Positions 19,854-54,599 are shown, counted from the stretch's first letter. The stretch is DNA of 64,000 bases from Thermodesulfobacteriota bacterium (GCA_039715015.1 JBDLIE010000011.1:1843-65842); one strand, 5' to 3'. Program-made: numbers and translations. Notes: generated by a model not told the origin, from the letters alone.

Positions 19854-21320
19854 CTACAACCTGATCTCCGGTGGTACTTCCTGGAAGTTGTCTTGGACCC
19901 ATTCCATCTGGCGCGCTTCATAATAGGCGTAACGCATAATGAGCTTATAGGCCATGCGGATGAATTGATTGGACGAGAAGAACATCTTCCAGAAGATGGA
20001 TGGCCGGGTGTAGTATTTTTTCAGGTATTTCTTCTGCAGGGCCAGGATCTCGGCGCCGCTATAGGCGTTATTATGGATCACCGGATGCATGAAATCATAT
20101 TTTGAAAAATCGCGCTCTTCAATGCGGCCATCCGCCTCGGCCTGGGCATAATAACGGGTGCCGGGCAGGGGCGTGGTCAGGGTCATGACCAGGAAGTCAC
20201 CGATCTGGGCCGCAAATTTATAGATGGTCTGCAAGGTCTCTTCAGTGTCATCTACATCGCCGAACATGACGTTGGTCATTACCATGATGCCGTGGGAGCG
20301 CAGCAGCTCGGCCGCCTCTTTGATCTGCTCTACGCTCTGGTTCTTAGTATAATTCTTCAGAGTCTCCGGGGAGATCGATTCCACCCCCAGCATGACCTCG
20401 TAGAGACCAAGCTTTTTATACTCGGGCAGCAGGTCGCGGTCGCGGAGGATATCCTTGATCCGGGACTGGAACCAGAAATCGCATTTGAGGTTTGATTTGC
20501 CCAGGGACTCCAGGAACGATTCATTGCGGGCTCTGGTCTGGTTGAAGGAATTCTCGTTAAAGACAAAGAGGGATTTGCCAAATTTTTTATTAAGCATCTC
20601 CATCTCTTTGACCACCAAGGGGCCGCTCCTACCGCGCCAGTTGGCCTGCCAGAGCTGCGACTCGGAGCAATAGGAGCAATGGTCTCCGCAGCCGCGGCTG
20701 GTGGAGATGCCCACCGCCCGTCTCCCCATGCCATGCAGGTAGTAGGTGGGGTTGTCCATGTCCATCAGATGGTAGCCGGGCATGGGAAGGGTGTCGAGGT
20801 CGTCGATCAGGGCCCGGGGGCTATTGCATACTATTTCGCCATCCTTCTGATATGCCACTCCGGCAATGGTACAGCCATTTTTGCAACCAGGCAGGCCTTC
20901 AAGGAGTTCAACAAAGGTCTTTTCGCCTTCACCCAGAATGATGAAATCAACCTCTGGGGCCTGGCTGAACATCACCTCGTAGTTCAGGGTGAAATGACCG
21001 CCACCACCGATGATGGTGGCTTCAGGCAGGGTGCGGCGCACCAGGCGGGCGGCATGGATGGCATCCTTATGGAAGGTGGCAGCTTGGCTGGTAATACCGA
21101 CGACATCGTAGTTACCTTGGCGCAGGCGGTTTTCCAGGTCGGTCCAGGGCTGACTCAGGGTGGTGGAGTCGATAACTTCAATATCGTAGCCCTCGCGTTC
21201 CATATAGGCCCCCAAGGCCATGAGGCCGGGGGAGGGCATCCACATACGCAGGGCAGCAAAAATCTGATGGGGCGGGTCAAGCAGTAGTATCTTCACAGCT
21301 AAATCGACTCCAGTAATCAA
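19854..21320 (-). CDS. B12-binding-domain radical SAM enzyme (subfamily A; paralogue of 50932..52476)
   Basis: The CxxxCxxC motif is RGCGDHCSYCSES. The N-terminal Rossmann-like B12-type domain contains KILLLDPPH...GGGGHFT. The start is uncertain (TTG 21320 or GTG 21296). Confidence 0.9.
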   Translation of the reverse strand: MITGVDLAVKILLLDPPHQIFAALRMWMPSPGLMALGAYMEREGYDIEVIDSTTLSQPWTDLENRLRQGNYDVVGITSQAATFHKDAIHAARLVRRTLPEATIIGGGGHFTLNYEVMFSQAPEVDFIILGEGEKTFVELLEGLPGCKNGCTIAGVAYQKDGEIVCNSPRALIDDLDTLPMPGYHLMDMDNPTYYLHGMGRRAVGISTSRGCGDHCSYCSESQLWQANWRGRSGPLVVKEMEMLNKKFGKSLFVFNENSFNQTRARNESFLESLGKSNLKCDFWFQSRIKDILRDRDLLPEYKKLGLYEVMLGVESISPETLKNYTKNQSVEQIKEAAELLRSHGIMVMTNVMFGDVDDTEETLQTIYKFAAQIGDFLVMTLTTPLPGTRYYAQAEADGRIEERDFSKYDFMHPVIHNNAYSGAEILALQKKYLKKYYTRPSIFWKMFFSSNQFIRMAYKLIMRYAYYEARQMEWVQDNFQEVPPEIRL

Positions 21321-22188
21321 AAAAATGATAAAATTGATCAGGATGGCGGCGGATATTCTTTTCGAATATTCCTGCCAGTTCCTGTGTTTTCTCGGCGATT
21401 AATTCGTTATTGTCCTTGCCCGCCACTCGGGAAACTTTGAGTGGTTTCTCCATCCAGGCCCGGTAGCAGCCATCAGGTCTGCGGATGATAAAGACCGGAA
21501 TCACCGGGGCACCAGTGGCCTGGGCCAAGGCCATAACTCCTGAAGGAAAATACACCTTTTTGTCAAAAAAGGTAACTGCCGACTTTTTACCGCCTTCATA
21601 GCGGTCGCCAAGCATGGCTATCACCTTATTGTCCTTGAGAAGGCGGGCCATCTTGATAATAGTGCCGTTATCCTCCGGGTCGATATGGATTGTCTTGATG
21701 CCAAGGCTGCCGCGCACCGTGTCTCGGTACTCCTGAACACCTTCCTCCTCATCTTTCAAGGTCAGGGTATAGATTGGAGAGCCGCGTAGGGCAAAGGTGA
21801 CGCCGCCCAGCTCCCAATTGCCAAGATGGGGGGTAATCAGAATGGCGCCATTGCCTTGGTCCAGGGCCTCTTGTATGTGCTGCGTGCCGATTTCTTCGGC
21901 CACGGTTTGCTGGTAATTTTCTTTAGTGAGGCGGTGGATAAGGACATAGTCACGTAAATACCAACCATAATTGGCAAAGAGCCTCCGCACCGTCTTTTTA
22001 ACCTGCGGGGCATTTTCCGGCAGGCCAAGGATAATAGAGGTGTTTCTCAGCAGCGGTTTACGTTTGGAACCCCAAAGCAGGTAGTAAAAATAACTCACCA
22101 CATGATTTTGGATGCGCTGCCACCAGACAGGTACGAGGCGGGCAAAAAAATAGGTGAGGAAGAGATAGAGTTTGCGGGGGATGAGCAT
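21277..22188 (-). CDS. Lysophospholipid/lipid A-type acyltransferase (LpxL/HtrB family)
   Basis: 303 aa with an N-terminal TM segment. ITPHLGNWELGG matches the family H(x)GNWE motif. Confidence 0.8.
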   Translation of the reverse strand: MLIPRKLYLFLTYFFARLVPVWWQRIQNHVVSYFYYLLWGSKRKPLLRNTSIILGLPENAPQVKKTVRRLFANYGWYLRDYVLIHRLTKENYQQTVAEEIGTQHIQEALDQGNGAILITPHLGNWELGGVTFALRGSPIYTLTLKDEEEGVQEYRDTVRGSLGIKTIHIDPEDNGTIIKMARLLKDNKVIAMLGDRYEGGKKSAVTFFDKKVYFPSGVMALAQATGAPVIPVFIIRRPDGCYRAWMEKPLKVSRVAGKDNNELIAEKTQELAGIFEKNIRRHPDQFYHFFDYWSRFSCEDTTA

Positions 22189-23666
22189 TATTTGTTGCTG
22201 ATAATATTTGCGGCAAAACAGCCGGATAGGGCGCTGCCGACTATGCCGTGGGCAGGGCGGTTATAATGCCCAATCCACAGCAGGTTGTCAAGCTTGGTGG
22301 CCAGGGGGGGGCGGCCAGGACCAACCTGTCCTAAGGCCGAGTCAAAGCCGTACATGGCCCCTTCTTCATTGCCGGTTCTGTCGATAAGGACCTGGGGAGT
22401 GGCCTGAACAGTAAAGATGTTGCTGGCGGCAAGGTCCAAGCCTGTTCTTTCCCTGACAATTTCAAAGATATCTCCCTGCAGTTTATCAATAGCCTCCCGG
22501 TTGGGAAATTCTTCGGCAAAGATGGAGGCCTTGGGGGCATGGACCAGCACCTTCATGGCGTGATGTCCCTCTGGAGCAAGATCTGGATCAAGGAGCGAGG
22601 GTGTTGTGATCACCAGGTGCAGGCCGTTCCTATAAATCCCTTTGGCAATGGCCTTGGCCTCAAGCTCAGGATCGTCGCTGGTATGCAGCGACACAAAATA
22701 GGGCCAATTCTCAGGCAGGGCATCTTCTGGCAGGGCCACATAAAAGAGCAGCGCCGAAGGCGAGACCGTATAGCGCTCCAGGTCAAAGACCTTGCCATAA
22801 AGAAGGCTTTCATCTTGGAGCATGGCCTGGCCGTGGAAGGGATTCAGAGCGCCAATAAACCAGTCTGCCTGAAAGGCTGTAGTGTCCTCAGTCACCACCT
22901 CCGTAACTCCTTTACTGGTATTCTTGATGGCCTTGATCTCTTGACCGGTGTGGATGGTTCCGTGGTTGTCAATGATGGCCTGGCGCAGCATGTCAGTGAG
23001 ATGCAGCATGCCACCTTTAGGATAAAAGACGCCGTCCTTTAAAACCTTGGCCCAGAGTACGGCCACAAAAATATAGGAAAGCTCACTGGGAGGCAGGGTG
23101 GTGGGCAGGGCGGAAAGGGCGTGGATTATGTCGTGGTGGCCGTTGAAAAATCGTTCCAGAATGGTGCCGTGGGAGTGACGGGCGCAACGAAATAAGGTGG
23201 GATAGAGAAAGGGCATGCAGAACTTTTTCCAGACAGGGGCTGCTTCAAAGGCCATAAACTGCCGGCCAAGCTTGGCAGTCAGTTTGCTGTAGGCTGCCAG
23301 GTTTTTTTCATGCTCAGGAAACCGTTCAGCAAGGGACTCCACATAAGCTTGCGGGTTGCGATAGTCGAGTTGCAGCTCAAAGCTGGGATAGATATTGCGG
23401 ATGGCCGGGATGGCCAGAAATTCAAGATCCGTATCTATGCCAAGCTCGCTGAAGATGGCATGAAACTCGCTGCCTGGTTTGCAGGCCGCTAAAAAGGCGC
23501 CGGTGGCATCAAAATAAAAGCCGTCGCGCCGGAAACCGGTGACGTAGCCCCCGGTTTTTTCCTCTTTCTCCAAGAGGGTGACATGGTGGCCGCGTTTGCT
23601 AAGCAGGGCAGCGGCGGTGAGACCGGCCATGCCGCCTCCCATAATGACAACGGAATTTTTAGGCAC
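22188..23666 (-). CDS. FAD-dependent oxidoreductase, phytoene desaturase (CrtI) family
   Basis: The dinucleotide fold is VVIMGGGMAGLTAAALLSKRGHHVTLLEKEEKTGG. It is 492 aa, and the C-terminal WIGHYNRPAHGIVGSALSG resembles CrtI-type ends. Confidence 0.85.
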   Translation of the reverse strand: MPKNSVVIMGGGMAGLTAAALLSKRGHHVTLLEKEEKTGGYVTGFRRDGFYFDATGAFLAACKPGSEFHAIFSELGIDTDLEFLAIPAIRNIYPSFELQLDYRNPQAYVESLAERFPEHEKNLAAYSKLTAKLGRQFMAFEAAPVWKKFCMPFLYPTLFRCARHSHGTILERFFNGHHDIIHALSALPTTLPPSELSYIFVAVLWAKVLKDGVFYPKGGMLHLTDMLRQAIIDNHGTIHTGQEIKAIKNTSKGVTEVVTEDTTAFQADWFIGALNPFHGQAMLQDESLLYGKVFDLERYTVSPSALLFYVALPEDALPENWPYFVSLHTSDDPELEAKAIAKGIYRNGLHLVITTPSLLDPDLAPEGHHAMKVLVHAPKASIFAEEFPNREAIDKLQGDIFEIVRERTGLDLAASNIFTVQATPQVLIDRTGNEEGAMYGFDSALGQVGPGRPPLATKLDNLLWIGHYNRPAHGIVGSALSGCFAANIISNK

Positions 23667-26085
23667 GGCGACCTCGTAATTGGAGGAGGGAAGAAAGGGT
23701 GATAACCGAATAGATAAAGCAGCTGGAAACGCCGATAATGGTCAACATGCCCATGGAAGAGAGGACGTGGTACTGGGCCAAGGCCAGGGAGCCAAAGCCA
23801 AGGCAGGTGGTGAGCGTTGTCAGCAAAATAGAACGGCCTGTGGAGGTCAGGGTCTGGCCGATATCACCGGTTTCCCTAAAGCGATCCATAATATGGATAC
23901 CATCATCCAAACCGATGCCGATGAGGATGGGAATGATGATGAAGTTAATCAGGTTGATGGAAATGCCCAGGTAGCCCATGAGTCCGGCGGTGGTTGTGAG
24001 GGCCAGGATGGTGGGCAGCAGAGCGAGGATCGTTTTTTTTAAACTGCGGAAAAAGAGAAGCAGGATAATAACCACCAGGGAGGAGGCCAGGAGCACTGTT
24101 TTAAGAAGGCCTGTTTTGGCAGAATCCATCAGGCTTCCCAGGGCCCGATCAAGGCTGACCACCTGAATCCCCGAATCAGAGGCCAGCATCTTTTCCTCAA
24201 GCCTGACCGCAGCCCCTTCAGAAAGGGCATTGACCCAGGTAACGCCGCTGATGCCCTTATCGTCTGTAAAGAAAAAGCGTTGGTGTAAGGGAAGGAGGCG
24301 GTCCAGAAAGGAGTTGCCTTTGGAGCTGTCCTTGCCAAGATCAGTTAGAAAAGAGAGCAGATGAGGGAAGCTCGCCACCTCCAGGCCATAGCTGGCAAAG
24401 GCCTTGTTGATTCTGGCTTGCTCGAAGTTTTCAAGCCTAAGTTGCCTGCCGCCACTCATGGTGGTCAGCGAGGCCCAGCCGTTGATATCTGCAGCGGGCA
24501 GTTCAGCGATTATTGTATCTACCTGTCTGGATTTCTGCCAAAAAGCGTCTTCGGAAGGTGATTGCCAAGAGACGAGCAGAGGAATGATGCCATTACTAAA
24601 ATGTTGATGGATATCCTGGCGCACCTGTACCGCCTCCAGGCCTTCTGGGTGAAGGGCCTCAAGGTTTCGTTCAAAATGAAGTTTTTGGAGGCCTGGCAAG
24701 GATGCCATGAAAAAAAAGAGGCTTATCCCCAAGCAGAGAACAGGCCTTTTTTTGACAAAAGCACCGATGATATTGATGCCCAGGAGGGAAAAAGGCTTAC
24801 GATTATGGGTCCAGGTTTGGCCCTCAAGCCAGTTAAGCCAGGCCGGTAAGGCCCAGAGGATGGTGATCAGACAGAAAAAAAGGCCCAGGCTCACCAGCCA
24901 GCCGATCTGGCGCAGCACCGGGCTTGCCGTGGTAGTGAGGACGGCAAAGGCAGTGAGGCTGGTAAGGCCACCCACAAGCACTGCCGAGCCGGTGCGCATA
25001 ACAGCCCGCCGGGTGGCCACAGCTGGAGGCTGGTCAGCAAGGCGTTCCGAGGCATAGCGGTCATAGACATGGATGGCAAAATCCACACCCAGGCCAAGAA
25101 CCACAGTGGCAAAGGCCACCGCAATCATATGAACCTGGCCGAAGGTGACGGCCATGAAGCCCAGGGCCAATTGGAGACCAACGCCCAGGGGAATAATGAT
25201 AAAGAGGAGAACGGTAAAGCGGCGGTAGGCAAAGAGAAAAAGAAGGCCGATACCGAGGACTGAACCAAGCAGGCAGTTGAGGATGTCGCCACGCATCAAG
25301 GCCTCTTCCTGGGCGGCAATGGCGTAGCCCCCGGTAAGACCGATTTCGAGATCCGGATAGTTGGCAAACACGGCATGGCTCTTTGCCATCAGGTCGATGG
25401 CAAAGGCCTTATTTGAGCCAGGTTGGCCGGGGGTGGCAATCAAGATCAGGGCTTTTTTGTCGGCGCTCAGCATTTCAGCACCATCGGCAAAGGCCATGGA
25501 GCCCTGCATGGCATGGAGCTTGTCGATAAAGAAACGGCGCAGGTTCAAGGGGTCCAGGCTGACGATCTTAGTGAGCATGGGAGCGCCAGGGGTGGCAAGC
25601 AGGGCCAGGGAGCGGCGGACCTCGTGGTCTATCTCCTGTGTTGATGCCAGAAAAGCGCTGAGTTGGGCAAGATCTTTTTCCGTGAGAAAGAGGGAGGGGG
25701 ATTCAAGATAGGTGGTGAGAAGATCAATGAAATCATCCGAACTCACCGCCTCAGCTTTCAGCATGGTTATAGATTTATAACCGGGGCTGCCGTTAATCTC
25801 CAGGCTGCTGAGCCTGCTGATAATTGTATTACTCTGGGAAAGCAGGTTTCCTGAATCGGCTTTGTCACTGACCAGGATATAGAGCTTGTCCTGGCCGTTT
25901 GAAGCGGTCACCGTATGGGAGAGCAGTTGAAAGGCCCGGTTGTCCTGGGGCAACAGGGCAAGGATGTTCTGCTCAAAGCGAAGCAGCCCGGTGAGAAGCA
26001 CCGCCACAACCACCACTGCCCCGAAACTGGCCAGTACCCTGCCGGGACGTTCGGTTATGAAACGCAGCAAAACATTCATGATCAT
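23659..26085 (-). CDS. MMPL/RND-superfamily lipid exporter
   Basis: 808 aa. It has two blocks of about 5-6 TM helices, each preceded by a large soluble loop, which is the typical MMPL topology. Confidence 0.85.
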   Translation of the reverse strand: MIMNVLLRFITERPGRVLASFGAVVVVAVLLTGLLRFEQNILALLPQDNRAFQLLSHTVTASNGQDKLYILVSDKADSGNLLSQSNTIISRLSSLEINGSPGYKSITMLKAEAVSSDDFIDLLTTYLESPSLFLTEKDLAQLSAFLASTQEIDHEVRRSLALLATPGAPMLTKIVSLDPLNLRRFFIDKLHAMQGSMAFADGAEMLSADKKALILIATPGQPGSNKAFAIDLMAKSHAVFANYPDLEIGLTGGYAIAAQEEALMRGDILNCLLGSVLGIGLLFLFAYRRFTVLLFIIIPLGVGLQLALGFMAVTFGQVHMIAVAFATVVLGLGVDFAIHVYDRYASERLADQPPAVATRRAVMRTGSAVLVGGLTSLTAFAVLTTTASPVLRQIGWLVSLGLFFCLITILWALPAWLNWLEGQTWTHNRKPFSLLGINIIGAFVKKRPVLCLGISLFFFMASLPGLQKLHFERNLEALHPEGLEAVQVRQDIHQHFSNGIIPLLVSWQSPSEDAFWQKSRQVDTIIAELPAADINGWASLTTMSGGRQLRLENFEQARINKAFASYGLEVASFPHLLSFLTDLGKDSSKGNSFLDRLLPLHQRFFFTDDKGISGVTWVNALSEGAAVRLEEKMLASDSGIQVVSLDRALGSLMDSAKTGLLKTVLLASSLVVIILLLFFRSLKKTILALLPTILALTTTAGLMGYLGISINLINFIIIPILIGIGLDDGIHIMDRFRETGDIGQTLTSTGRSILLTTLTTCLGFGSLALAQYHVLSSMGMLTIIGVSSCFIYSVITLSSLLQLRGRRA

Positions 26086-26269: not shown

Positions 26270-27862
26270 TTAATACGGTCTTTGATAATTTTTCGGCTTG
26301 AGCTTGAGCAGGGTGGAGGCCACGGTGCAGAGCAGGCGGCCCTGCCAAGGCCTGCCGTATTTTTTCGGGTTTGGGTGGAGAAAGCAGAGGCGTTTGCATT
26401 TAATCTTCTGCAGGCGCTGGGCAAAATCATCGTAGGGCCGACTCATGTCCAGGGGCTTTTTGAAGAAGTCCCGGAGATAATAGCCAAAGGATGTATAGGT
26501 CGAGTTGCCCTGCTCAGCATGGGCATTATAAAAATCAGTGAAGGTCTTGCGGTCGGTGACAATGGAGTAATGATCCGGGTCGATCTGCCAAGGCGCTCCC
26601 GGTTCCATTTCGATGGACAGGGTGCGCAGGCCGCGGACATGCTTGTAACGATCCATGATGATCTTGCGTAGTTTAAAGGTGTCCTCCATGACCTCTTCAT
26701 TTTCACCGGGCAGGCCATAGGTGAAGAAGATCTCGGTGGAGATGCCCATGGCATCAAGCTTGTCCATCTTGGCCAGGAAGGCCTCGGTGGTAAAGCCCGG
26801 GCCCTTATGACGGAGGCGAAGCTCTTCATTGCCGCATTCCGGCGACATGGCAATAATGGAATCTTCGCCCGGGAAGGTCTTGTGGAACTCATCGATAAAC
26901 TCGTCAGCAGGCAGGCCGTTGCACTCAAACATCCAGTTGGTCTTGATGCCTTCGGCCCGGATCTTCTTCCAGAGTTCGATGAAATACTCCTGGCTCACCG
27001 GCTCAGGATCGGTGGCCGTGTGCATGGTCTTGTAGCCGGCGGCAATGCCCTCCTTGATGGTCTGGATGACCGATTCGTGACTGCGGTAGATAAAGCCCAC
27101 CCGCTTACTGATATGGCGCTGTTGAGGGATATGGGAGCCCCCGCACCAGGTACAGTTAAAGGGACAGCCACGGCCAATGGCCAGGGGCAGCAGAGGCGAC
27201 TGGATGGTGAATTGCTTGAAGTTCTGCTCTTTGCTAAAACTCTTGGCGTAGAAAAAGGGCAGACCGATATATTTTATATAGGTATCGCTATGACGCAACA
27301 GGGAGAAGTTGCTGTAGTTCAGGGCTGAGACCATCTCGGCATCGCCCACGTAGGTATGGTCGTTTTCCACCACCTGGTTATTGCGACGCCAGGTAAGATT
27401 AGGAATTGGCTCCAGACTGCTGCCGGCATCCAAGGCCTTCAATAGTTCAAGAACCGGGACCTCGCCGTCACCGCGCACCACCGCATCGATCATCGGATAG
27501 TCGGCAATGATCTGGTCATGGAAAAAGGAGGCGGTATAGCCGCCGATAAAGATGAAGATGTCAGGCCGAAGCTCCTTTAATTTGCGGGCTGCCTCGATAA
27601 CGTCGTAGGCCTGGTAATGCCAGTGCATGGACATGCCAATGGCCTTGATCTCCGGCTTGTCCATCACCAACTCGTCAATCTTGAAGAGAGGGTTCTCCAC
27701 CCACTCAACGCCGACGTGGATGATCTCGGTATCAAAACCGTTCTTCTGAACATAATCGCCAATGGCCATCAGGCCCATGGGCATATAGTTTATCCAGATA
27801 AAATCGCCGATGGGCTTATAGCTGTTGTTGAACTTGGGTACGTGGAGAAAGAGAGTTTTCAT
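26270..27862 (-). CDS. B12-binding-domain radical SAM enzyme (subfamily C)
   Basis: 530 aa. The CxxxCxxC motif is RGCPFNCTWCGGS, and the N-terminal B12-type domain contains KAIGMSMHW...IFIGGYTASF. Confidence 0.9.
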   Translation of the reverse strand: MKTLFLHVPKFNNSYKPIGDFIWINYMPMGLMAIGDYVQKNGFDTEIIHVGVEWVENPLFKIDELVMDKPEIKAIGMSMHWHYQAYDVIEAARKLKELRPDIFIFIGGYTASFFHDQIIADYPMIDAVVRGDGEVPVLELLKALDAGSSLEPIPNLTWRRNNQVVENDHTYVGDAEMVSALNYSNFSLLRHSDTYIKYIGLPFFYAKSFSKEQNFKQFTIQSPLLPLAIGRGCPFNCTWCGGSHIPQQRHISKRVGFIYRSHESVIQTIKEGIAAGYKTMHTATDPEPVSQEYFIELWKKIRAEGIKTNWMFECNGLPADEFIDEFHKTFPGEDSIIAMSPECGNEELRLRHKGPGFTTEAFLAKMDKLDAMGISTEIFFTYGLPGENEEVMEDTFKLRKIIMDRYKHVRGLRTLSIEMEPGAPWQIDPDHYSIVTDRKTFTDFYNAHAEQGNSTYTSFGYYLRDFFKKPLDMSRPYDDFAQRLQKIKCKRLCFLHPNPKKYGRPWQGRLLCTVASTLLKLKPKNYQRPY

Positions 27863-28027: not shown

Positions 28028-28035
28028 AAAAAAAT

Positions 28036-29223: not shown

Positions 29224-29258
29224 GGTTGAGCTCCGGCAAGGGAGCAGATTAATCTTCG

Positions 29259-46288: not shown

Positions 46289-47068
46289 ATGACTTCCATG
46301 AAAAAACTCTTTTTTTTCACCACAGAGACATTCTTTTCAATACCCCCTCGAGGGGTACAGAGGCATTCTTTTCAATACCCCCTTGAGGGGTACAGAGGTT
46401 TGAAATCTTTTCTGGTACTCATTTTTGGGTCTTTGTGCCTCTGTGGTGAAATTTTTTGTCCTTTTATCACCAGGGCAGACGAGGGGCGTCTCCTTGAGCA
46501 GGCCGAGGCCCAGGACGTCCTGCAGCGCATCAAAGAAAGCCAGGCAGACCTCACTACCATCACCGCTTCCTTTGTTGAAGAACGGCGCATCGCTGTCCTG
46601 GCCAACCCCCTTGTTTTTTCGGGGAAGGTCTATGTTGAACCGGAAGATTTTCTTTTCCTTCAATATGAGAAGCCCCTGCGTCATATAATGAAGATGGCAG
46701 GAGACAGCGTGCTTTTTTTTGTTGAAGACTCTGAAACGGCTGATATGGTTGATCTTGCCGGAGCCCAGGAAAGAGGGCAGCGGCCTGATCTTTTTAACTG
46801 GTCGCCAAAGAATTTTCAGGGTGAAGTGCGCGAGGTAAAGGATGGCTATTTGCTTGTCGACCCGAACGCCAGCGCTGGTAGCCGGCAGGTACGGGTTGTT
46901 GTCGACAAGAGTACTCTGGTGGTACGCCATATCCTTCTTGTTGACGAGTCGGGCGATGAGACCAGGATCACTCTTTCAGATGTCCGGCTTAATGAAGAAA
47001 TTTCAGAACATATTCGCAACTATGCGCTGCCGCAAGGTGTGCGTGTCCATAAACTAAACCAGCCATGA
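46289..47068 (+). CDS. LolA-like lipid/lipoprotein carrier family protein
   Basis: ITASFVEERRIAVLANPLVFSGKVYVEPEDFLFLQYEKP fits the LolA-like pattern seen in aryl polyene clusters. The 5' end is uncertain: codons 14-37 are a tandem DNA repeat, and an in-frame TTG at 46400 would give the signal peptide MKSFLVLIFGSLCLCG. Confidence 0.7.
   Translation: MTSMKKLFFFTTETFFSIPPRGVQRHSFQYPLEGYRGLKSFLVLIFGSLCLCGEIFCPFITRADEGRLLEQAEAQDVLQRIKESQADLTTITASFVEERRIAVLANPLVFSGKVYVEPEDFLFLQYEKPLRHIMKMAGDSVLFFVEDSETADMVDLAGAQERGQRPDLFNWSPKNFQGEVREVKDGYLLVDPNASAGSRQVRVVVDKSTLVVRHILLVDESGDETRITLSDVRLNEEISEHIRNYALPQGVRVHKLNQP
46329..46398. repeat. Tandem 35-nt repeat (2 copies), each containing a palindrome
   Basis: cattcttttcaataccccctcgaggggtacagagg (46329-46363) and cattcttttcaatacccccttgaggggtacagagg (46364-46398) differ at 1 position. 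The core palindrome is tacccc-N-ggggta. Confidence 0.75.
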
Positions 47069-49383
47069 GTTCAGTTCAACCCAGAGAAGCAGCCATCATC
47101 GGCATGGGAGCGATTACTCCAGCCGGCTCCGGAGTTAAGGCCTTTGCCAAAGCCCTTTTTGCCGGTGAGTCGCAGTTTGCTGATATTTCTCTTTTTGATG
47201 CCTCCGGTCATCGAACCGGGGTGGGGGCGGAGCTTGTTCTTCCAGACTATCATCCCTGCAGGCTTGATGAGAAGCTCCTGGGCCGCACTGATATTGTTGG
47301 TCTTGCCGCTGCCCATGAGGCCCTGAACCAGGCCGGACTCCTCGATGCTGAGGGCCGGGTAACTGCCGGAGCCAAGACCGCTCTGGTCTGTGCTACGGCA
47401 GGTGGGGCAATCCTTGGTCTGGAGGCCTTTTTTCGTCATCGTCATTACGGCGAATCGGCTGACTCCCGTCAGCTTCTCACCTCTTTTTGCCTCTCAGCCC
47501 TAGCCACCAATATTGCCAAGGAATTTCAGATCAGCGGTCCGCGGACCACCACTGCCACTGTCTGTTCATCCAGCGGTGTGTCTATGGCAGTGGGCCTTGA
47601 GATGCTCAGGGAAAGATCGGATATCGACTATGTAGTGGTTGCCGCCTCTGAGGCCCTCTGCGAGGTTACCCACGGCGGCTTTAATGCCCTGCGCTCCGTG
47701 GCCCCTGATTGCTGTCGGCCTTTTGCCGAGGATCGACAGGGCCTTGTCTTGGGCGAGGCGGGCAGTGCCCTGGTCCTCTGTCGCCCAGATAAAGCTGGCA
47801 AAGAGGCGCCCTGTTTTTCCGGCTATGGCCTGAGTACGGATCTCTACCATTTTACCGCTCCTGATCCAAAGGGTGGGGCCAGCCGCTTTACCCTTGAGGA
47901 GGCCCTGGCAGATGGCCAGGCTCTGCCCGCAGAGATAGATTACATCAATTGCCATGGTACAGGGACGCCAAAAAATGACGAGGCCGAGGTTCAGGGTATA
48001 AAGAATACCCTGGGAGAACGGAGTAAAGAGATCCCCCTTTCTTCGACAAAGTCGATGTTTGGCCACACCCTTGGGGCTGCCAGCTTACTGGAGGCCATTG
48101 CCACAGTGCTTGCTTTGGACAAACAGGCAGCCCCTCCCACCGCCCACCTCCATAACCAAGACCCGGAGCTTGATCTTAATTTTACTCCTCTGGCCAGCCA
48201 GCCAGCTCCGATCAAAACGGCCCTGTCTAACTCCTTTGCCTTTGGCGGTTCCAACGTCTCTCTGGTCTTGAAGAAGAGCTGTTCGCGTCAACAGGGTGGG
48301 AAAAAGGAGCAAGGTGCGCATGCCGTTATTACGGGCATTGGTATTGTTTCTCCTTTGGGTGTGGGCTGCCAGTCCTTTATTAAATCGCTGGATCAAGGTG
48401 ACTCCGGGTTGTGCTCCTTTGCTGAGTTTGGTGAGGAGTGGCAGGAATATCAAGGTGGAATTGTTGATATGGCAGCTGTTCGCCAAGGCATTGAGCCGCG
48501 GCGCCGTAGGCGTCTCAACCGCCTTGGCTCGTTTCTCACCGTAGCCGTTAACGAAGCTCTGGCCCAGGCGGGCCTAGTTGGCGAGGACCTCAATGATGCC
48601 CATCTGGCTTATGGCTCTGCCTTTGGCTGTTCCAGTAATGTCCATAATTTTTACACCCAGCTCCTCAATCACGGTGCCACAGCAGCCTCTCCACAGGATT
48701 TCATGTTGTCGGTGACCAATGCCCCGGCTGCCTTGGTGGCTCAGCACCTTGGGGTGCAAGGGCCGGTCTGGGTCTTTGTCGAGGATGAGGTGTCCTGGGA
48801 GGTCTCCCTTCACTGGGCTGTCCAGCTTATTGAAACAGGCCGGGCCAAGCGGGTGATTGTTGCTGCCGCCGATGAGATCAGCGACTCCATTATCGCCATC
48901 CATGGCGCCTTGGGTTTTCTTGATCAGCCCGGTTATCATCTTGGAGAAGGGGCGGTGGCCATGGTTCTTGAGGGCGAAGAGGAGGCGGAGAGGAGGGCTG
49001 TCTCCCCTTTGGGCGTTGTTGGCAGCTGTCTTTCCTCCCAAGATGTGAGCTGTGACCCCATGACCTTCAGCAGGGACGCTGGCCTGATTGCTCAGTCGGT
49101 GCAGAACTGTCTCGGTGATAGAGAAAGGGCTTCCCTGGAGATCTTTGGTCCGGAAAACGGTATTGTTGACGAGGTGGCCCGGCAAGCTCTGGATGGTGTG
49201 TTGTCAGGCGATTCGGGGAAAAATGTTATCCGTTCCAGGGCCGGTGATTCCGGTCTTGGCGGTGGACTGGCCCTGGCCGCAGGTCTGCTGTCCAGTCAAG
49301 ACATTAATCAGGTGCTGACTCTTTCCATGGGCCGGGGAGGGGTACAGGCGACAACTTTGGTTGAACGGAGAGGTGGCCAGTGA
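47065..49383 (+). CDS. Fused double ketosynthase: N-terminal active KS plus C-terminal degenerate KS/CLF-like domain
   Basis: 772 aa. The N-terminal half has ATVCSSS, HFTAPD and NCHGTGT. The C-terminal half (from HAVITGIGIVSPLG) has a thiolase fold but no HGTGT-type His motifs. Confidence 0.85.
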   Translation: MSSVQPREAAIIGMGAITPAGSGVKAFAKALFAGESQFADISLFDASGHRTGVGAELVLPDYHPCRLDEKLLGRTDIVGLAAAHEALNQAGLLDAEGRVTAGAKTALVCATAGGAILGLEAFFRHRHYGESADSRQLLTSFCLSALATNIAKEFQISGPRTTTATVCSSSGVSMAVGLEMLRERSDIDYVVVAASEALCEVTHGGFNALRSVAPDCCRPFAEDRQGLVLGEAGSALVLCRPDKAGKEAPCFSGYGLSTDLYHFTAPDPKGGASRFTLEEALADGQALPAEIDYINCHGTGTPKNDEAEVQGIKNTLGERSKEIPLSSTKSMFGHTLGAASLLEAIATVLALDKQAAPPTAHLHNQDPELDLNFTPLASQPAPIKTALSNSFAFGGSNVSLVLKKSCSRQQGGKKEQGAHAVITGIGIVSPLGVGCQSFIKSLDQGDSGLCSFAEFGEEWQEYQGGIVDMAAVRQGIEPRRRRRLNRLGSFLTVAVNEALAQAGLVGEDLNDAHLAYGSAFGCSSNVHNFYTQLLNHGATAASPQDFMLSVTNAPAALVAQHLGVQGPVWVFVEDEVSWEVSLHWAVQLIETGRAKRVIVAAADEISDSIIAIHGALGFLDQPGYHLGEGAVAMVLEGEEEAERRAVSPLGVVGSCLSSQDVSCDPMTFSRDAGLIAQSVQNCLGDRERASLEIFGPENGIVDEVARQALDGVLSGDSGKNVIRSRAGDSGLGGGLALAAGLLSSQDINQVLTLSMGRGGVQATTLVERRGGQ

Positions 49384-50819
49384 CAACGGATGTGATCGTC
49401 ATTGGTGGCGGCCTTGCCGGTCTCAGCACAGCCGCCCTTCTTGCCAACAAGGGCCGGAAGGTGCTGCTGCTTGAGAAAAATCAGCGCCTCGGTGGTTATG
49501 CCACGAGCTACACCAGTCATGGCCATCGTTTTGATATTGCCACCCAGGCCCTGGGCGGCTGCGGTGAGGGAGGGGTGGTTCACTCCATCCTTGTCGAGCT
49601 TGGTATTGCCGAGCAGATACGTTTTCTGGCCTGTGAGCCTGCTCGTATGTATTATCTGCCGGATGGCAAAACCTATATTCAACACGGTTTTCTCCGGGCC
49701 CAGCAGGAGGAACTGAAAAAGGCTTTTCCCGCATTTCTAAGGGAGATTGATCGTTGTTTTGCAGTCTGGCAAAATCTTTTTGAAGAGCTTGAGACCATCG
49801 CCACAAAGCCTGGCGGCGAGGTGGCATTTCAGTTTGCCCGCAGTTTTCCAAATCTGGCCCGCTACAGCAGAACAACGGTTCAGCAGTTCTTCAATGAACT
49901 TGCCATCCCACAAGCGCTGCAGGTTCGCCTGGCTTGCCGGGCAGGCTATTGTATGTTGCCCCTGCATCGCTTGTCCCTGGTGGCCTTTGCCTGCACGGAG
50001 ATGAGCTTTGCCAGCGGCGCCTGGATGGTTGAGGGCGGGGTGAGCCGCTTGGCCGATGTTCTGCGGAACTATATTGTTGAACAGGGCGGTGAAGTAAGGG
50101 CGCGAAGTCGGGTGACCTCCCTTGTCTCTGAGCATGAGAGGCTGGTTGGGGTGGAGGTCAGTGGTGAAAAAATATCCTGCAAGCAGGTCGTGTTGGCCTG
50201 TGATGGCAGCGATTTGTTGAGGGGGTTGCCAGGCCTTTCTGACAAATATCTGAGCAGACGAGGCTCTTTTGAAAAGAGCGGCTCCTATTTTATCAGCTAT
50301 TATCAAGTGGCCAAAGATGCTGTTCATGGTCTCGCTCCAAACATCGAGGTCTGGCCTGGTCAGGAAAGTAAGCTTGCCGGAAAGGAAAATGTCGGGGTAT
50401 ATTACCTGCTCATTCCTTCCCTGGTTGATCCTGGTTCGGCACCAGAGGGATACCATTCTTTTTGCTTGAGCGTGCCTCTGGCAGCAGGAGTGTCCCCCGC
50501 AGCTTCTGAGCGCCGCCGCCTTCGGCAGCAATTGGAAAAAGAGGTTGAGGCCCAATTCCCTACTCTTAAGGGTAAACTTCGCTTTCTCTTTGAACTTGCT
50601 CCGGAGCATCTGCAGCTCATGACGGCAAACCCCAGCGGCTCTGCCTATGGCTGGGCCCAGACGCCGGAGCAGGCTGGTATCCACCGCTTAAGCATTAAGA
50701 CAGCGGTGGAGAACCTTTATTTGGCCGGGCACTGGACCATGCCCGGTGGCGGTATTGCCGCGGTAATGACCTCAGGTCGTCTCTGCGCCCAGGCTGTGTT
50801 AGAAGTAGAAGGGAAGTGA
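49380..50819 (+). CDS. FAD-dependent oxidoreductase, phytoene desaturase (CrtI) family
   Basis: VIVIGGGLAGLSTAALLANKGRKVLLLEKNQRLGG, with C-terminal LYLAGHWTMPGGGIAAVMTSG. 479 aa. Confidence 0.85.
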   Translation: MTTDVIVIGGGLAGLSTAALLANKGRKVLLLEKNQRLGGYATSYTSHGHRFDIATQALGGCGEGGVVHSILVELGIAEQIRFLACEPARMYYLPDGKTYIQHGFLRAQQEELKKAFPAFLREIDRCFAVWQNLFEELETIATKPGGEVAFQFARSFPNLARYSRTTVQQFFNELAIPQALQVRLACRAGYCMLPLHRLSLVAFACTEMSFASGAWMVEGGVSRLADVLRNYIVEQGGEVRARSRVTSLVSEHERLVGVEVSGEKISCKQVVLACDGSDLLRGLPGLSDKYLSRRGSFEKSGSYFISYYQVAKDAVHGLAPNIEVWPGQESKLAGKENVGVYYLLIPSLVDPGSAPEGYHSFCLSVPLAAGVSPAASERRRLRQQLEKEVEAQFPTLKGKLRFLFELAPEHLQLMTANPSGSAYGWAQTPEQAGIHRLSIKTAVENLYLAGHWTMPGGGIAAVMTSGRLCAQAVLEVEGK

Positions 50820-50825
50820 TTTTTT

Positions 50826-50931: not shown

Positions 50932-52476
50932 ATGGCAAAGAATACAACGTTAAAATTTCTGCTCATCGATCCTCCCCACCGCATCTGGGATATTCTCAAG
51001 GCCTGGATTCCCAGCCCCGGCTGTTTGCAGCTGGCCGCCTATCTTGAGGATTATTTCCAGATCGATTTCATGGACTGCACCTTAAATAAAAATCCCTGGC
51101 ATGATCTGGAGAAAAAGCTGCGGGAGGAAAAGCCGGATGTCGTTGGTATTTCTATCGGCTGCACCTATTTCACCTATGACGGTTATAACGCTGCTTCCTT
51201 GGTGCGGGACGTGCTGCCGGATGCCATTATCCAGGTAGGCGGCGCCCATCCCACCTTAAACGCCGAAGAGTGTTTTCGGGAATGTCCTGATATCGATTAT
51301 ATCTGTATGGGGGAAGGGGAGCATACCACCCGTGAGTTTCTGGAGAATATTGCTGACGGCAACCCAGACTTTTCCCATATCAAGGGCCTGGCCTATCGTG
51401 ATCCCAACAGTGATGGAATCATTATTACGGACAAGCGGCCACTCATTGAGGATCTCGATTCCCTGCCTATTCCTGCCTACCACCTGGTGGATATGGAGCA
51501 CCCCTACATTGGGCTGCCTTCCGAAGGTAAACGAGCCTTTCTGGTTAATTTTGCCCGCGGTTGCGGATATCGCTGTAAATTTTGTTCCGAGTCAAAGTTC
51601 TGGGACCGCAAGTGGCGGGGCCGTTGCCCTGAACTGATCGGTGAAGAGCTTGAATTGCTTAAGAAAAAGTATAACCGTGACACCTTTTATGTGGGCGATA
51701 ATATCTTCAACTTCACCCGGGAGCGCTCCAAGGGCTTTATTGCCGAGATGAAGAAACGTCAGCTGGGCCAGAATTTCTGGCTCCAGAGCCGGGCTGATAT
51801 TGTTGTCCGTGATGAAGACCTCATGACCGGCTTTAAAGAGGCTGGTGTGTACCAGTTTATGATCGGTGTTGAGTATTCGGAGCAGGAGGTCTTAAACACC
51901 CTGGACAAGGATATCTCCATGGCCACGGTGGAAAAGGCCATGCAGATTCTCAAGAAGCATGAGTTTATGATCATGGCCACCCTGATGATCGGCCATTGGG
52001 ATGAGACCAAGGAGGATCGCCAGAAGCTCTTTGATTTCTGTACCAAATATGTCAATCATTTCGGCCTCAATGTGGTCACTCCCTTGCCTGGCACCGAGTT
52101 CCATCAGGAAATGAAGGAGCTTGGCCGCATCAAGAACGAGGATTACCGGAAGTTCGATTATATCCAGGCCATTATGCCCACCAAGGAGATCCATGATCTT
52201 GATAAGATCACAGAATTACACCTCGGCATGATCCGTAAGTTCTACTGGCGGCCCATTGAGCTGTGGCGCATGTTTTTCTCCAAGAATAAGATATTACGCC
52301 ATCATCACCGTTACTTCATGAAGTACGGTTTTGAGGTCATGCAGCATGAGGTTTTTGGCAAACCCCTTTGGGTCCAGGATAATTTCCAGACCTTTGAGAG
52401 TTTCCTGCGGGAGCGTGGCAAGCCCATTCACGGTAGTTTCAGCGGTTTTGAGCCGGATGAGACGGTGGAGGTTTAA
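50932..52476 (+). CDS. B12-binding-domain radical SAM enzyme (subfamily A)
   Basis: The CxxxCxxC motif is RGCGYRCKFCSES. The N-terminus KFLLIDPPHRIWDILKAWIPSPGCLQLAAYLE parallels 19854..21320. The shared C-terminal motif is WVQDNFQ. Confidence 0.9.
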   Translation: MAKNTTLKFLLIDPPHRIWDILKAWIPSPGCLQLAAYLEDYFQIDFMDCTLNKNPWHDLEKKLREEKPDVVGISIGCTYFTYDGYNAASLVRDVLPDAIIQVGGAHPTLNAEECFRECPDIDYICMGEGEHTTREFLENIADGNPDFSHIKGLAYRDPNSDGIIITDKRPLIEDLDSLPIPAYHLVDMEHPYIGLPSEGKRAFLVNFARGCGYRCKFCSESKFWDRKWRGRCPELIGEELELLKKKYNRDTFYVGDNIFNFTRERSKGFIAEMKKRQLGQNFWLQSRADIVVRDEDLMTGFKEAGVYQFMIGVEYSEQEVLNTLDKDISMATVEKAMQILKKHEFMIMATLMIGHWDETKEDRQKLFDFCTKYVNHFGLNVVTPLPGTEFHQEMKELGRIKNEDYRKFDYIQAIMPTKEIHDLDKITELHLGMIRKFYWRPIELWRMFFSKNKILRHHHRYFMKYGFEVMQHEVFGKPLWVQDNFQTFESFLRERGKPIHGSFSGFEPDETVEV

Positions 52477-53143: not shown

Positions 53144-53201
53144 GCCTGCTCCTGGTTTGTAGAAAAAATAAATAAGTTCACCGGCTTAGGCCGATTTTAA
53201 T

Positions 53202-54599
53202 ATGCTCAGTAAATCCAACAAAAAAATTCTTTTTATCTCGCCGGCCAGAAACCGTGGACCGGATGAGGATTTTGTCTTCAAACTCAGCTTCCTTAACCTG
53301 CCTTATCTGGCGGCAGTGACACCGGCTGACTATGAGGTCGAGATTATAGACGAAGAGAAGGAGGTTATCAACTTTGATGATCACGTCTGGTTGGTTGCAC
53401 TCACCGCTCAGACACCCATTGCGCCGCGGGCCTATGAGGTGGCTGATGAGTTCAGGAAGAAGGGGGTGGCCACCGTTATGGGCGGCGTTCACGCCTCCAC
53501 CCTGCCTGATGAGGCCTTGGCCCATGTTGACTCGGTCATCATCGGTGAAGGAGAGTTTGTCTGGCAGGACCTCCTGGCCGATCTTGAAAAGGGTGCGCTC
53601 AAAGAACGCTATACAAGTGGTACCGACCACTCCCTGGCAGCACTGCCCTGGCCCCGCCGTGATCTCCTTAATCCCCGCCATTATATTCCCCTTACCCTTC
53701 TAGAAACCACGCGCGGCTGTCCCCACCAATGCGATTTCTGCGGGGTCTCCAAGTTTTTCGGCCATCGCTATCGCAAGCGGCCCATTGATGAGATCACGGA
53801 GGAGCTTGAGTCCTTATTCGGTGGTGGCTTTCGTCATGGTATCAGCCGTTTTCTGGCCAAACTGGGCCTTGATATGCCCTATTTTATCGAGCGCCGTCTC
53901 ATCTATTTTATCGATTCTAATTTTGCCGCTGATAAGAAATATGCCCTGGAGATTATGGAGGTGCTGGAGCGCCTCGATGTTAAGTGGTGGTGCCATGCCA
54001 CCGTTGATATCGCCCAGGATCAGGAGTTCTTGCAAAAAATGAATGATTCCGGCTGTCTGGCTGTGAATGTCGGCTTTGAATCATTGTCGCCGGAAAACCT
54101 GAAGACCATGCATAAGTCCTATGCGGCCCGTCATGATTATGCTGCTGCCATCAAGGCCTTTCATGATAATAACATCGGCGTTATGGGCACCTTTGTGGTG
54201 GGCTTTGACGACGAGGACAGCTCCATCTTCCGCCGGATCTTTGATTTTTCCATCGATAACCAGCTTGACTGGTCCCTGACCTTTATCAGGACCCCCTACC
54301 CAGGCACCAGCCTCTATAATCAGATGGAGGATGAGGGGCGCATCGCCGTCCGCGACTGGGAAAAATATGACACCCTGCACTGTGTATTCAAGCCAGGGAA
54401 GATGAGTGTTGTTGAGCTGGAAGAGGGGCTGAAATGCCTGTGGCGCTACACCTTCTCCCTGTCGTCCATCTATCGCCGCATTATCAAAGGGCCGCGGGTC
54501 CATCCTCTCTTTTATCTCGGCATGAATATGCAGTTCTTTCAGATGGTGCGCAAGTGGGTGACCTCCTATGACCCTTTTATCGACAAGGACAAAAGGTAA
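53202..54599 (+). CDS. B12-binding-domain radical SAM enzyme (subfamily B)
   Basis: The CxxxCxxC motif is RGCPHQCDFCGV. The N-terminal domain reads WLVALTAQTPIAPRAYEVADEFRKKGVATVMGGVHASTLPDEA. Confidence 0.9.
   Translation: MLSKSNKKILFISPARNRGPDEDFVFKLSFLNLPYLAAVTPADYEVEIIDEEKEVINFDDHVWLVALTAQTPIAPRAYEVADEFRKKGVATVMGGVHASTLPDEALAHVDSVIIGEGEFVWQDLLADLEKGALKERYTSGTDHSLAALPWPRRDLLNPRHYIPLTLLETTRGCPHQCDFCGVSKFFGHRYRKRPIDEITEELESLFGGGFRHGISRFLAKLGLDMPYFIERRLIYFIDSNFAADKKYALEIMEVLERLDVKWWCHATVDIAQDQEFLQKMNDSGCLAVNVGFESLSPENLKTMHKSYAARHDYAAAIKAFHDNNIGVMGTFVVGFDDEDSSIFRRIFDFSIDNQLDWSLTFIRTPYPGTSLYNQMEDEGRIAVRDWEKYDTLHCVFKPGKMSVVELEEGLKCLWRYTFSLSSIYRRIIKGPRVHPLFYLGMNMQFFQMVRKWVTSYDPFIDKDKR

Follow-up and report, generated by a model that had tools for sequence, protein, structure and literature searches.

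Why does a single bacterial locus keep seven radical S-adenosylmethionine (SAM) enzymes of the B12-domain type, and do these enzymes repeat one reaction or does each take a step of its own? The question is raised by a 34.7 kb locus (positions 19854-54599) in a 64 kb stretch of DNA from a Thermodesulfobacteriota bacterium of the sulfate-reducer type (GCA_039715015.1, JBDLIE010000011.1:1843-65842); the whole 64 kb stretch is called the window below. The seven enzymes evidently represent ancient, separately conserved orthogroups that fall into four subfamilies. The reading that we consider the most probable is that of a type II fatty acid synthase/polyketide synthase locus, similar to aryl polyene (APE) clusters and of the 'ladderane-type', in which several non-redundant, O2-independent tailoring steps act on an unsaturated chain made for the outer membrane.

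Clusters of this type were first described in Kuenenia, where fatty acid genes are accompanied by SAM radical and phytoene-desaturase-like genes with a 'striking' synteny to Desulfotalea psychrophila (Rattray et al. 2009, PMC2649909). This member of the Desulfobulbales had polyunsaturated acyclic hydrocarbons and no ladderanes (PMC2649909). The core of the anammox Cluster I consists of an acyl carrier protein (ACP), a dehydratase, a ketosynthase (KS) with an inactive KS, a phytoene-dehydrogenase-like enzyme and a cobalamin radical SAM enzyme, and a link between the genes and ladderanes has not been shown even in anammox bacteria (bioRxiv 10.64898/2026.05.19.726425). According to a 2026 review, the ring-forming enzyme of ladderane synthesis is still unknown (PMC13459092). 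Ladderanes themselves have been found only in anammox Planctomycetota, while clusters labelled 'ladderane' by antiSMASH are reported and expressed, with unknown function, in Desulfobacterota and other phyla (PMC9902471). B12 radical SAM enzymes can methylate lipid chains, form rings in them and desaturate them without O2 (PMC13459092), and the tails of archaeal lipids are methylated, cyclized and desaturated by such enzymes (bioRxiv 10.1101/2025.10.20.683597). An earlier note on this DNA had treated the locus as unprecedented. Given the 2009 description of the cluster type (PMC2649909) and the antiSMASH 'ladderane' clusters of Desulfobacterota (PMC9902471), it is a rich new example of a recognised, uncharacterised type and not a new kind.

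Results

Seven B12-domain enzymes and one SPASM enzyme

Seven open reading frames (ORFs) of the locus encode proteins with a B12-binding-like domain and a radical SAM core. They are named here after their subfamilies: A1 (19854..21320, minus strand, 488 aa, CGDHCSYC), A2 (50932..52476, plus strand, 514 aa, CGYRCKFC), B1 (33701..35035, minus strand, 444 aa, CPYKCEFC), B2 (43807..45153, plus strand, 448 aa, CPNSCNFC), B3 (53202..54599, plus strand, 465 aa, CPHQCDFC), C (26270..27862, minus strand, 530 aa, CPFNCTWC) and D (40083..41444, plus strand). All of these ORFs had been listed in the earlier note and prove to be real and complete, with a single CxxxCxxC motif in 7/7. At Pfam cutoffs of 29.5 bits for Radical_SAM (PF04055) and 32.1 bits for B12-binding (PF02310), the core is recognized in every protein (50-75 bits, 7/7) and the N-terminal domain in 6/7 (39.6-67.2 bits), B3 lying just below the cutoff with 31.1 bits; A1 has 53 bits on PF04055 and 67 bits on PF02310, and the core of B3 scores 57 bits. 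The combination that defines class B radical SAM enzymes, a core with an N-terminal Rossmann-like B12-binding domain, is present in all seven.

A further radical SAM protein is encoded at 42533..43810 (plus strand, 425 aa, CNLRCYGC). It is of the SPASM type and not of the B12 type, with 72.6 bits on PF04055, 32.4 bits on PF13186 (SPASM) and no PF02310 match. It resembles AhbD/NirJ (about 93 bits, below all cutoffs), and its position is kept in two related loci, L006 from a Logan assembly and L011 from Oceanidesulfovibrio indonesiensis. The locus thus encodes eight CxxxCxxC radical SAM enzymes, seven with a B12 domain and one of the SPASM type. The count of eight B12-type enzymes given in the earlier note has to be lowered to seven, which is also what its own list contains, and its count of nine CxxxCxxC enzymes to eight, the SPASM protein without a B12 domain included. 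The sole further CxxxCxxC motif in a long ORF found by a six-frame scan of the window is at 5362..6351; this candidate for a ninth enzyme lies outside the locus, is a homologue of LPG_synthase_C and gives no radical SAM match.

Within the 64 kb window, radical SAM genes are confined to the 35 kb locus, where by coordinate arithmetic the eight of them fill about 33% of the 34.7 kb; the remaining 29 kb contain none. This density is not a matter of chance, since other genomes, with proteins 50-90% identical, have the same genes in unchanged order.

Four subfamilies made of seven old orthogroups

In an all-against-all BLASTP comparison, A1 and A2 are 39% identical (362-375 bits) and the three B proteins 34-36% (286-303 bits), whereas pairs from different groups score 24-100 bits at about 21-29% identity, some of them over short local alignments only. 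A neighbour-joining tree (100 bootstraps, capped Kimura distances) was calculated from the window proteins and the B12-domain proteins of six related loci in other genomes. It supports A, B, C and D with bootstrap values of 94, 98, 100 and 92, respectively. The split into four subfamilies that had been drawn by eye in the earlier note is therefore real, with 34-39% identity within groups against about 21-29% between them and bootstraps of 92-100. The note had itself suggested that the grouping be checked by comparing members with non-members, and members turned out to be clearly closer to each other. The alignment also bears out the motifs that it had read, namely K.LL.DPPH.I...L..W.PSPG...L.AY, RGCG..C..CSES and WVQDNFQ in subfamily A and GG.HA[ST]..P.EA and T.RGCP..C.FC in subfamily B.

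Below the level of subfamilies, the orthogroups of A1, A2, B1, B2 and B3 each have a bootstrap value of 100, and B2 clusters with the Oceanidesulfovibrio gene at the same value. Each protein of the window is 55-91% identical to one specific protein elsewhere compared to 34-39% to its paralogues within the locus. For A1, the orthologues are found in Dissulfurirhabdus thermomarina (locus L009, 71% identity) and in L010, a 90% relative (88%); for A2, in L006 (80%), L007 (61%) and the deltaproteobacterial genome of L005 (57%). B1 is 73% identical to its Dissulfurirhabdus orthologue, while B2 and B3 have their counterparts in L006 (55% and 67%), the latter with a precomputed PF02310 match. Since the orthologues are so much closer than the paralogues, the radical SAM copies are old and individually maintained, and several distinct steps consequently fit better than redundancy. 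The duplications evidently predate the split of Desulfobulbales, Dissulfurirhabdus and Oceanidesulfovibrio. The idea that the locus carries out many distinct radical steps seems reasonable and is strengthened by this orthogroup analysis.

D belongs to a curated lipid family

The NCBIfam cutoffs that matter here are 481 bits for BchE (TIGR02026), 650 for HpnR (TIGR04367), 578 for HpnJ (TIGR03471), 500 for TIGR04190 and 360 for TIGR04072. D is a member of TIGR04072 (rSAM_ladder_B12, 'lipid biosynthesis B12-binding/radical SAM protein') with 391.9 bits against the cutoff of 360 and a match that spans profile positions 1-440 of 443. On the same profile the other three subfamilies remain at 27-100 bits and are not members. 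TIGR04072 marks the 'ladderane-type' clusters common to anammox bacteria and Desulfotalea, and homologues of D with the same NCBI name occur in Desulfobulbaceae, Oceanidesulfovibrio, Dissulfurirhabdus, Nitrospirota and metagenome-assembled genomes (MAGs) of Planctomycetaceae. The source labels of the 466-aa homologue group of D are confined to 'Planctomycetaceae' and 'Syntrophaceae' MAGs; since these labels gave only MAG names, TIGR04072 is the one line of evidence that points to orthology of D with the Kuenenia enzyme. By profile and sequence, D is closest to TsrM, BzaD and PhpK.

BchE is the best NCBIfam match of subfamily A (A1 251 bits, A2 242 bits). The similarity is nearly full-length (profile positions 1-447 of 497) and includes the same architecture of B12 domain and radical SAM core. 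The scores are however about half of the cutoff and the locus offers no chlorophyll pathway context, so that A is not BchE. BchE, the anaerobic Mg-protoporphyrin monomethylester cyclase, is a non-methylating enzyme that forms a C-C bond oxidatively. The other subfamilies score lower on this profile, B with 86-121, C with 68 and D with 79 bits, and do not reach the cutoff either. None of the seven belongs to HpnR or HpnJ, the best scores being 144 bits (A2) and 145 bits (A1), respectively; subfamily A as a whole has 142-144 bits on HpnR. The curated families nearest to B are BchE and HpnJ, with 121 and 102 bits for B1, far under the cutoffs. C finds its best match in TIGR04190, the Ta0216 family (184.7 bits, below the cutoff of 500), and literature searches returned no function for this archaeal family, which might conceivably be that of the glycerol dialkyl glycerol tetraether ring synthase.

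Folds and conserved cysteines

C, the most divergent member, has no sequence match in the PDB and was for this reason modelled with AlphaFold from 42 homologues (mean pLDDT 91.6, pTM 0.91). The best PDB matches of the model are TsrM, MgmA, OxsB, CysS and TokK, followed by AprD4, with template modelling (TM) scores of about 0.6 over both domains. The B3 model was built from three window paralogues only and is of low confidence (pLDDT 64.7), so that its Foldseek ranking, with AprD4 on top (TM 0.65, 22% identity) and MgmA and TsrM next, is indicative only. Within this model, residues 30-150 form a beta/alpha pattern with a pLDDT of 72-94. By sequence, AprD4 is also the closest PDB entry to B1 (67.6 bits), while the solved structure closest to D is that of the Trp C2-methyltransferase TsrM (138 bits). 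The fold that C and B share with AprD4, TsrM, MgmA, TokK, CysS and OxsB contrasts with a sequence identity of only 12-22%, and these enzymes act on small molecules or peptides.

The designation 'B12-type' used in the earlier note holds as far as the fold is concerned. The note had envisaged that the N-terminal domains might lack a PF02310-like fold, and both the Pfam matches and the models of C and B3 instead display one that resembles the B12-binding domain. We know of no universal cobalamin-binding motif in class B enzymes. As a statement about cobalamin use, the designation is not supported; in sequence and in the low-confidence model, B is closest to AprD4. According to a 2026 review, AprD4 and ArsL have a B12-type domain and yet do not bind cobalamin (PMC12931638), and a B12-like fold is thus no proof of cobalamin use.

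The conserved cysteines differ between the subfamilies. In A and B they are limited to the CxxxCxxC triad. C has three additional cysteines (C489, C493 and C512), invariant across the 42 homologues, in a C-terminal KC...C...C region, and these may form an extra metal or cluster site. In D, C289 is extra and invariant while C255 and C323 are nearly so.

Two divergent arms of lipid genes

The locus is organized in two divergent arms that meet at about 35.1-35.4 kb, and the 340-bp gap between them (35036..35373) has promoter-like sites on both strands. The right arm, on the plus strand, starts with genes for a DUF4410 lipoprotein (35374..36000), an ACP (36024..36293; PF00550 45 bits, with the motif LGLDSVDALEL), a 4HBT thioesterase (36413..36943), a family 2 glycosyltransferase (GT2; 36940..37734), a KS (37673..38899; Pfam ketoacyl-synt, with ATACSSS, HGTGT and KSMTGH) and a KS partner resembling a chain-length factor (CLF; 38826..40079; ketoacyl-synt, lacking the His-His motifs), followed by D. 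Between D and the end of the arm lie a class I SAM methyltransferase (41417..42298; PF13489, PF08241), the SPASM enzyme, B2, a small membrane protein of the Sm_multidrug_ex family (45018-45617), a second class I methyltransferase (45610..46287), a LolA-like carrier (46289..47068, with its start probably near 46403; the L006 orthologue has 221 aa), a fused KS-CLF of 772 aa (47065..49383; two ketoacyl-synt stretches, conserved in L006 and L011) and a CrtI/phytoene-desaturase-like FAD oxidoreductase (49380..50819; PF01593 101 bits), which is encoded directly upstream of A2; B3 closes the arm. The right-arm flavoenzyme has 127 bits on crtI_fam, and its left-arm counterpart 130 bits, both below the cutoff of 238.

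The left arm, on the minus strand, begins with B1 and continues with a FabA/ApeP-like dehydratase (33240..33698), a LuxE-like acyl-protein synthetase (31905..32969), a LuxC-like acyl reductase (30514..31908), a short-chain dehydrogenase/reductase (SDR) type ketoreductase (29756..30517), a DUF3592 protein and a Peptidase U32 family protein (28036..29349; PF01136), the last directly upstream of C. The dehydratase scores 22 bits on Pfam FabA (cutoff 23), and its orthologues carry a precomputed match to PF22817 (ApeP-like). Downstream of C follow an MMPL/RND-type transporter (23659..26085; PF03176), the second CrtI-like FAD oxidoreductase (22188..23666; PF01593), an LpxL-type lipid A acyltransferase (21277..22188; PF03279), A1 and a FabD-like acyltransferase (18901..19818). 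The arm ends with an ATP-grasp protein (17747..18904), a polysaccharide deacetylase/DUF3473 protein (15950..16783) and unassigned proteins. We infer from co-orientation only that the distal genes at 15144..19818 (minus strand), among them three for proteins without a family, are part of the cluster; the FabD-like and ATP-grasp genes follow A1 in L010 too.

Over long co-directional runs the genes overlap or abut their neighbours. The Cys-His-His triad is kept in the stand-alone KS and in the N-terminal half of the fusion and is absent from both partners. With identities of 36% for the KS pair, 27% for the CLF pair and 27% for the CrtI-like pair, the duplicated genes are old paralogues as well. 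An enoyl reductase is not encoded in the cluster, nor are there precursor-peptide or cofactor genes within it.

Much of this arrangement recurs elsewhere. The closest records of A2, at 88-95% identity, are from MAGs labelled Desulfurivibrionaceae, Desulfobulbaceae and Proteobacteria/Deltaproteobacteria bacterium. Exact look-ups gave no record for A2 or for the D-type protein of Dissulfurirhabdus. The right arm is present gene for gene, in the same order, in L006 and in the cultured O. indonesiensis, where D is 51% identical. The left arm is found in the same divergent layout in L010, and with its order kept in the cultured D. thermomarina (C 70% identity). On a smaller scale, the U32-C gene pair and the placement of the MMPL and LpxL-type genes on either side of the left-arm desaturase are shared with L009 and L010, and the order of the DUF4410, thioesterase and GT2 genes around the ACP gene with L010 and L011. 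A gene of subfamily A stands next to a CrtI-like gene in both arms and also in L006, L007 and L011. A Nitrospirae MAG (L012) carries a simpler form of the cluster in which three B12-domain genes stand in tandem, and another metagenomic locus combines MMPL, CrtI-like, iron-containing alcohol dehydrogenase, C-like and A2-like genes.

Discussion

Comparison with known clusters

The locus shares with the Kuenenia and Desulfotalea clusters a dedicated ACP, a dehydratase, a KS with an inactive partner and phytoene-dehydrogenase-like flavoenzymes. Further common elements are B12-domain and other radical SAM enzymes, SAM methyltransferases, a LuxE/phenylacetate-CoA-ligase-like enzyme, a GT2, a membrane transporter and a polysaccharide deacetylase. 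The core known from Cluster I, that is ACP, dehydratase, active KS with inactive partner, phytoene-dehydrogenase-like enzyme and B12 radical SAM enzyme, is thus entirely co-located here, D belongs to the family built around these clusters, and Desulfotalea is of the same order (Desulfobulbales) as the host. The Kuenenia loci, Cluster I (kuste3603-3608) and Cluster II (kuste3335-3352), and those of Desulfotalea were compared by their published description. For the entire Kuenenia set four putative SAM radical enzymes are described, and Cluster I has a single cobalamin enzyme, as opposed to seven B12-domain enzymes in the present locus; the host is also not an anammox bacterium, and a non-ladderane product would be expected.

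The earlier note had seen an APE-like fatty acid/polyketide locus with an unusual load of radical SAM enzymes, and the domain inventory agrees with this. Like APE clusters, the locus encodes a KS/CLF pair, ACP, ketoreductase, ApeP-like dehydratase, thioesterase, LpxL-type acyltransferase, GT2, LolA-like carrier, MMPL exporter and a methyltransferase, so that the APE gene set of KS/CLF, ACP, ketoreductase, dehydratase, thioesterase, acyltransferase, glycosyltransferase, LolA-like and MMPL proteins occurs together. It differs by its additional radical SAM, CrtI-like, LuxC/LuxE and U32 genes, none of which, to our knowledge, is present in the canonical APE clusters of Escherichia, Vibrio and Xenorhabdus. 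Enzymes of the same class that act on inert lipid chains without O2 include HpnP, HpnR and HpnJ of hopanoid synthesis and, in archaea, the glycerol dialkyl glycerol tetraether ring synthase, the lipid methylases and the desaturase Ted; their substrates are isoprenoid whereas the chain in question would be built by ketosynthases.

A model for the tailoring of a ketosynthase-built chain

Starting from the gene content, subfamily structure, conservation and folds described above, we infer a substrate, an order of steps and a chemistry for the locus. The LuxE-like adenylating enzyme and the FabD-like acyltransferase would load the ACP. An unsaturated chain would then be built by the two KS/CLF pairs, one split and one fused, together with the ketoreductase and the ApeP/FabA-like dehydratase, and the two CrtI-like flavoenzymes might add or shift double bonds. 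The predicted tailoring set, which would work without O2, comprises the seven B12-domain radical SAM enzymes, the SPASM enzyme, the U32 protein and the two class I methyltransferases. The thioesterase, LpxL-type acyltransferase, GT2 and LuxC-like reductase could release the chain or anchor it to a lipid or glycolipid, and the LolA-like and MMPL proteins would carry the product to the outer membrane.

Because the B12-domain enzymes form seven ancient orthogroups in four subfamilies, each most likely has its own step. The paralogues within A and those within B probably share a chemistry and differ in the position that they modify or in which of the two modules supplies their substrate. The individual chemistries are guesses by analogy. 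D might transfer a methyl group to an sp2 carbon like TsrM or BzaD. A could catalyze a BchE- or HpnR-like oxidation/cyclization or a C-methylation coupled to the adjacent CrtI-like enzyme. For B, an AprD4-like rearrangement or dehydration, possibly independent of cobalamin, may be considered. C would act together with the U32 protein encoded directly upstream and might use an extra metal site. Other proteins of the U32 family have been reported as O2-independent hydroxylases.

Alternative explanations

If all seven enzymes were cobalamin-dependent C-methyltransferases, regiospecific or iterative as in PoyB/PoyC, CysS or HpnP/HpnR, they would set methyl branches along one chain and produce an isoprenoid-like polyene with multiple branches. 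Such a product would suit CrtI-like enzymes, whose usual substrates are polyenes with methyl branches, and the paralogue series in A and B would fit positional variants of one reaction. The proximity of D to TsrM, BzaD and PhpK, the score of A on HpnR and the match of the C model to TsrM, MgmA, CysS and TokK point the same way, as does the predominance of methylases among the B12 radical SAM enzymes characterised so far (PMC12931638). However, the best match of A is BchE, a cyclase/oxidase, and the best matches of B are AprD4, HpnJ and BchE, none of which is a methylase. At 22-26% identity the subfamilies diverge more than regiospecific variants of a single reaction would require, and the locus already encodes two ordinary methyltransferases of class I. 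Methylation by the entire set therefore appears unlikely to us. A more limited proposal is that part of the set, especially B, only looks B12-type and consists of AprD4-like dehydratases, rearrangement enzymes or anaerobic desaturases that work without cobalamin. AprD4 is the top PDB match of B by sequence as well as by model, the PF02310 score of B3 falls under the cutoff, B conserves no cysteines other than those of CxxxCxxC, and the non-binders AprD4 and ArsL lie within the same similarity network (PMC12931638). On the other hand, B1 and B2 pass the PF02310 cutoff, the B3 model with its three-sequence alignment is of low confidence, and the true cobalamin enzymes MgmA and TsrM come close behind AprD4 in the Foldseek list. 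We consider this proposal somewhat doubtful, though a better candidate than methylation throughout; it is compatible with the best explanation and competes with the 'B12-type' label only.

The two other explanations concern the locus as a whole. An accumulation by chance, in which radical SAM genes for unrelated functions such as cofactor synthesis or peptide maturation have piled up mosaic-like beside a fatty acid cluster, could draw on the pair of A2-type and B-type genes outside a lipid context in L005 and on the similarity of the SPASM enzyme to heme and peptide maturases. This is very improbable given that the genes, every radical SAM gene among them, keep the same arrangement across orders of Desulfobacterota at 50-90% identity, that the genes overlap or abut in long co-directional runs and that the cluster lacks precursor-peptide or cofactor genes. 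We give still less credence to the synthesis of true ladderanes, i.e. lipids with concatenated cyclobutane rings, in a non-anammox bacterium. It is true that the core gene set is the same as in the anammox Cluster I, that D is a TIGR04072 protein and that antiSMASH labels such clusters 'ladderane' (PMC9902471). Yet Desulfotalea psychrophila with its syntenic cluster had acyclic polyunsaturated hydrocarbons and no ladderanes (PMC2649909), anammox Planctomycetota are the only organisms from which the compounds are reported (PMC9902471), and the genes have not been linked to them even there.

Several observations also weigh against our preferred reading of separate tailoring steps on a single chain. 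Every chemical assignment is made by analogy, as no product is known for any such cluster, and A, B and C stay below the cutoff of every NCBIfam family. 'B12-type' is an assignment of fold only, by profile and model, and an Rfam scan of the window detected no cobalamin riboswitch and no other RNA family. Of the canonical genes for an aryl starter, neither an ammonia lyase nor a ligase of the ApeH type was found; the cluster has no Pfam match to a lyase or AMP-ligase and has the LuxE-like synthetase instead. Dissulfurirhabdus has the left arm by itself, flanked by unrelated genes, and for this reason the arms could make two products and not one. Finally, the A2-like and B-like genes of L005 are direct neighbours in a region without lipid genes, which means that subfamily membership alone does not imply a lipid substrate.

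Implications

A more speculative extension of the preferred reading, to which we attach a rather low probability, is that the product represents a new class of outer-membrane lipids, namely a KS-built polyene or polyunsaturated chain remodelled entirely by O2-independent radical chemistry, with multiple C-methylations, desaturation and at least one carbocycle-forming step. The latter step would be due to the BchE-like or C-type enzymes, and the product could then amount to a 'carotenoid mimic' that is not an isoprenoid, or else to a carbocyclic lipid akin to ladderanes in its mechanism of formation. If this were true, the deltaproteobacterial enzymes would offer a tractable model for the unsolved ladderane pathway. 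Ladderane biosynthesis has been an open problem for about twenty years, and the products of the 'ladderane-type' clusters of many non-anammox anaerobes are equally unsolved (PMC13459092, PMC9902471). Specialists already know these clusters, and the locus does not reveal the product. What it adds is that the seven B12-domain enzymes are old and separately conserved orthogroups in four subfamilies, of which only one enzyme is in the curated 'ladderane' family, and that Dissulfurirhabdus thermomarina and Oceanidesulfovibrio indonesiensis, cultured reducers of sulfate or sulfur, carry complete arms. In such carriers, unlike in anammox enrichments, lipidomics, genetics and feeding with isotopes are feasible. 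If the product were solved, four branches of the cobalamin radical SAM superfamily that are so far uncharacterised would gain functions, and radical SAM tailoring of lipids would extend from isoprenoids to ketosynthase-derived chains.

Non-coding elements and flanking genes

A 25-nt element, TTTTTTGGCCNCGGAACCCACGGAA, is present at 27875-28033 (minus context) and at 50820-50887 (plus strand), just upstream of the C gene and the A2 gene and in the same orientation relative to each. At both sites tandem CCACGGAA octamers face an inverted copy; 6/8 of the CCACGGAA copies in the window lie in these two gaps, compared to 1.8 expected window-wide. The same arrangement precedes the C gene in L010 (9833-9990) and is absent from more distant loci. 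The sites could be operators or REP-like hairpins. The 726-bp gap between A2 and B3 contains, on the opposite (minus) strand, an ORF of 126 aa (52763-53143) which matches no Pfam family and is conserved in L002 (82%), L001 (80%), L004 (69%) and L006 (43%). The left-arm gap that separates the LuxE-like gene from the dehydratase gene contains an inverted repeat (33067-33147) of two perfect 25-bp arms around a 31-nt loop, which may form an intra-operon hairpin. Two tandem copies of a 35-nt unit, ACAGAGRCATTCTTTTCAATACCCCCTYGAGGGGT, are found at 46311-46391, at the 5′ end that is annotated for the LolA-like ORF. Since the LolA-like orthologues have 221 aa, this stretch is probably intergenic. The first 27 nt of ACAGAGRCATTCTTTTCAATACCCCCTYGAGGGGT recur at 19822-19848, between 18901..19818 and A1.

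The listed starts of three further ORFs (28036-29349, 45018-45617 and 54577-55908) are probably too far upstream, because the orthologues have 390-394 aa compared to 437, 153 compared to 199 and 396 compared to 443, respectively; as listed, they cause overlaps of 91-135 nt with their neighbours. Two of the related loci, L009 (14045-17029) and L012 (957-3911), contain two DUF2229/HGD-D proteins and a BcrAD/BadFG activase, a 2-hydroxyacyl-CoA-dehydratase-like system that is absent from the window. The upstream flank (656-13583) is ordinary, with genes for FtsH, an OmpA-family protein, Sir2, LPG_synthase_C, two ABC exporter components, a DUF3179 protein and an ABC-F ATPase. Downstream of the cluster, at 54577-58725 on the minus strand, lie genes for a pyridine-nucleotide-disulphide oxidoreductase, the small and large subunits of aconitase and a homocitrate/isopropylmalate-synthase-like protein, which probably serve 2-oxoacid chain elongation; the same set follows the cluster in L006.

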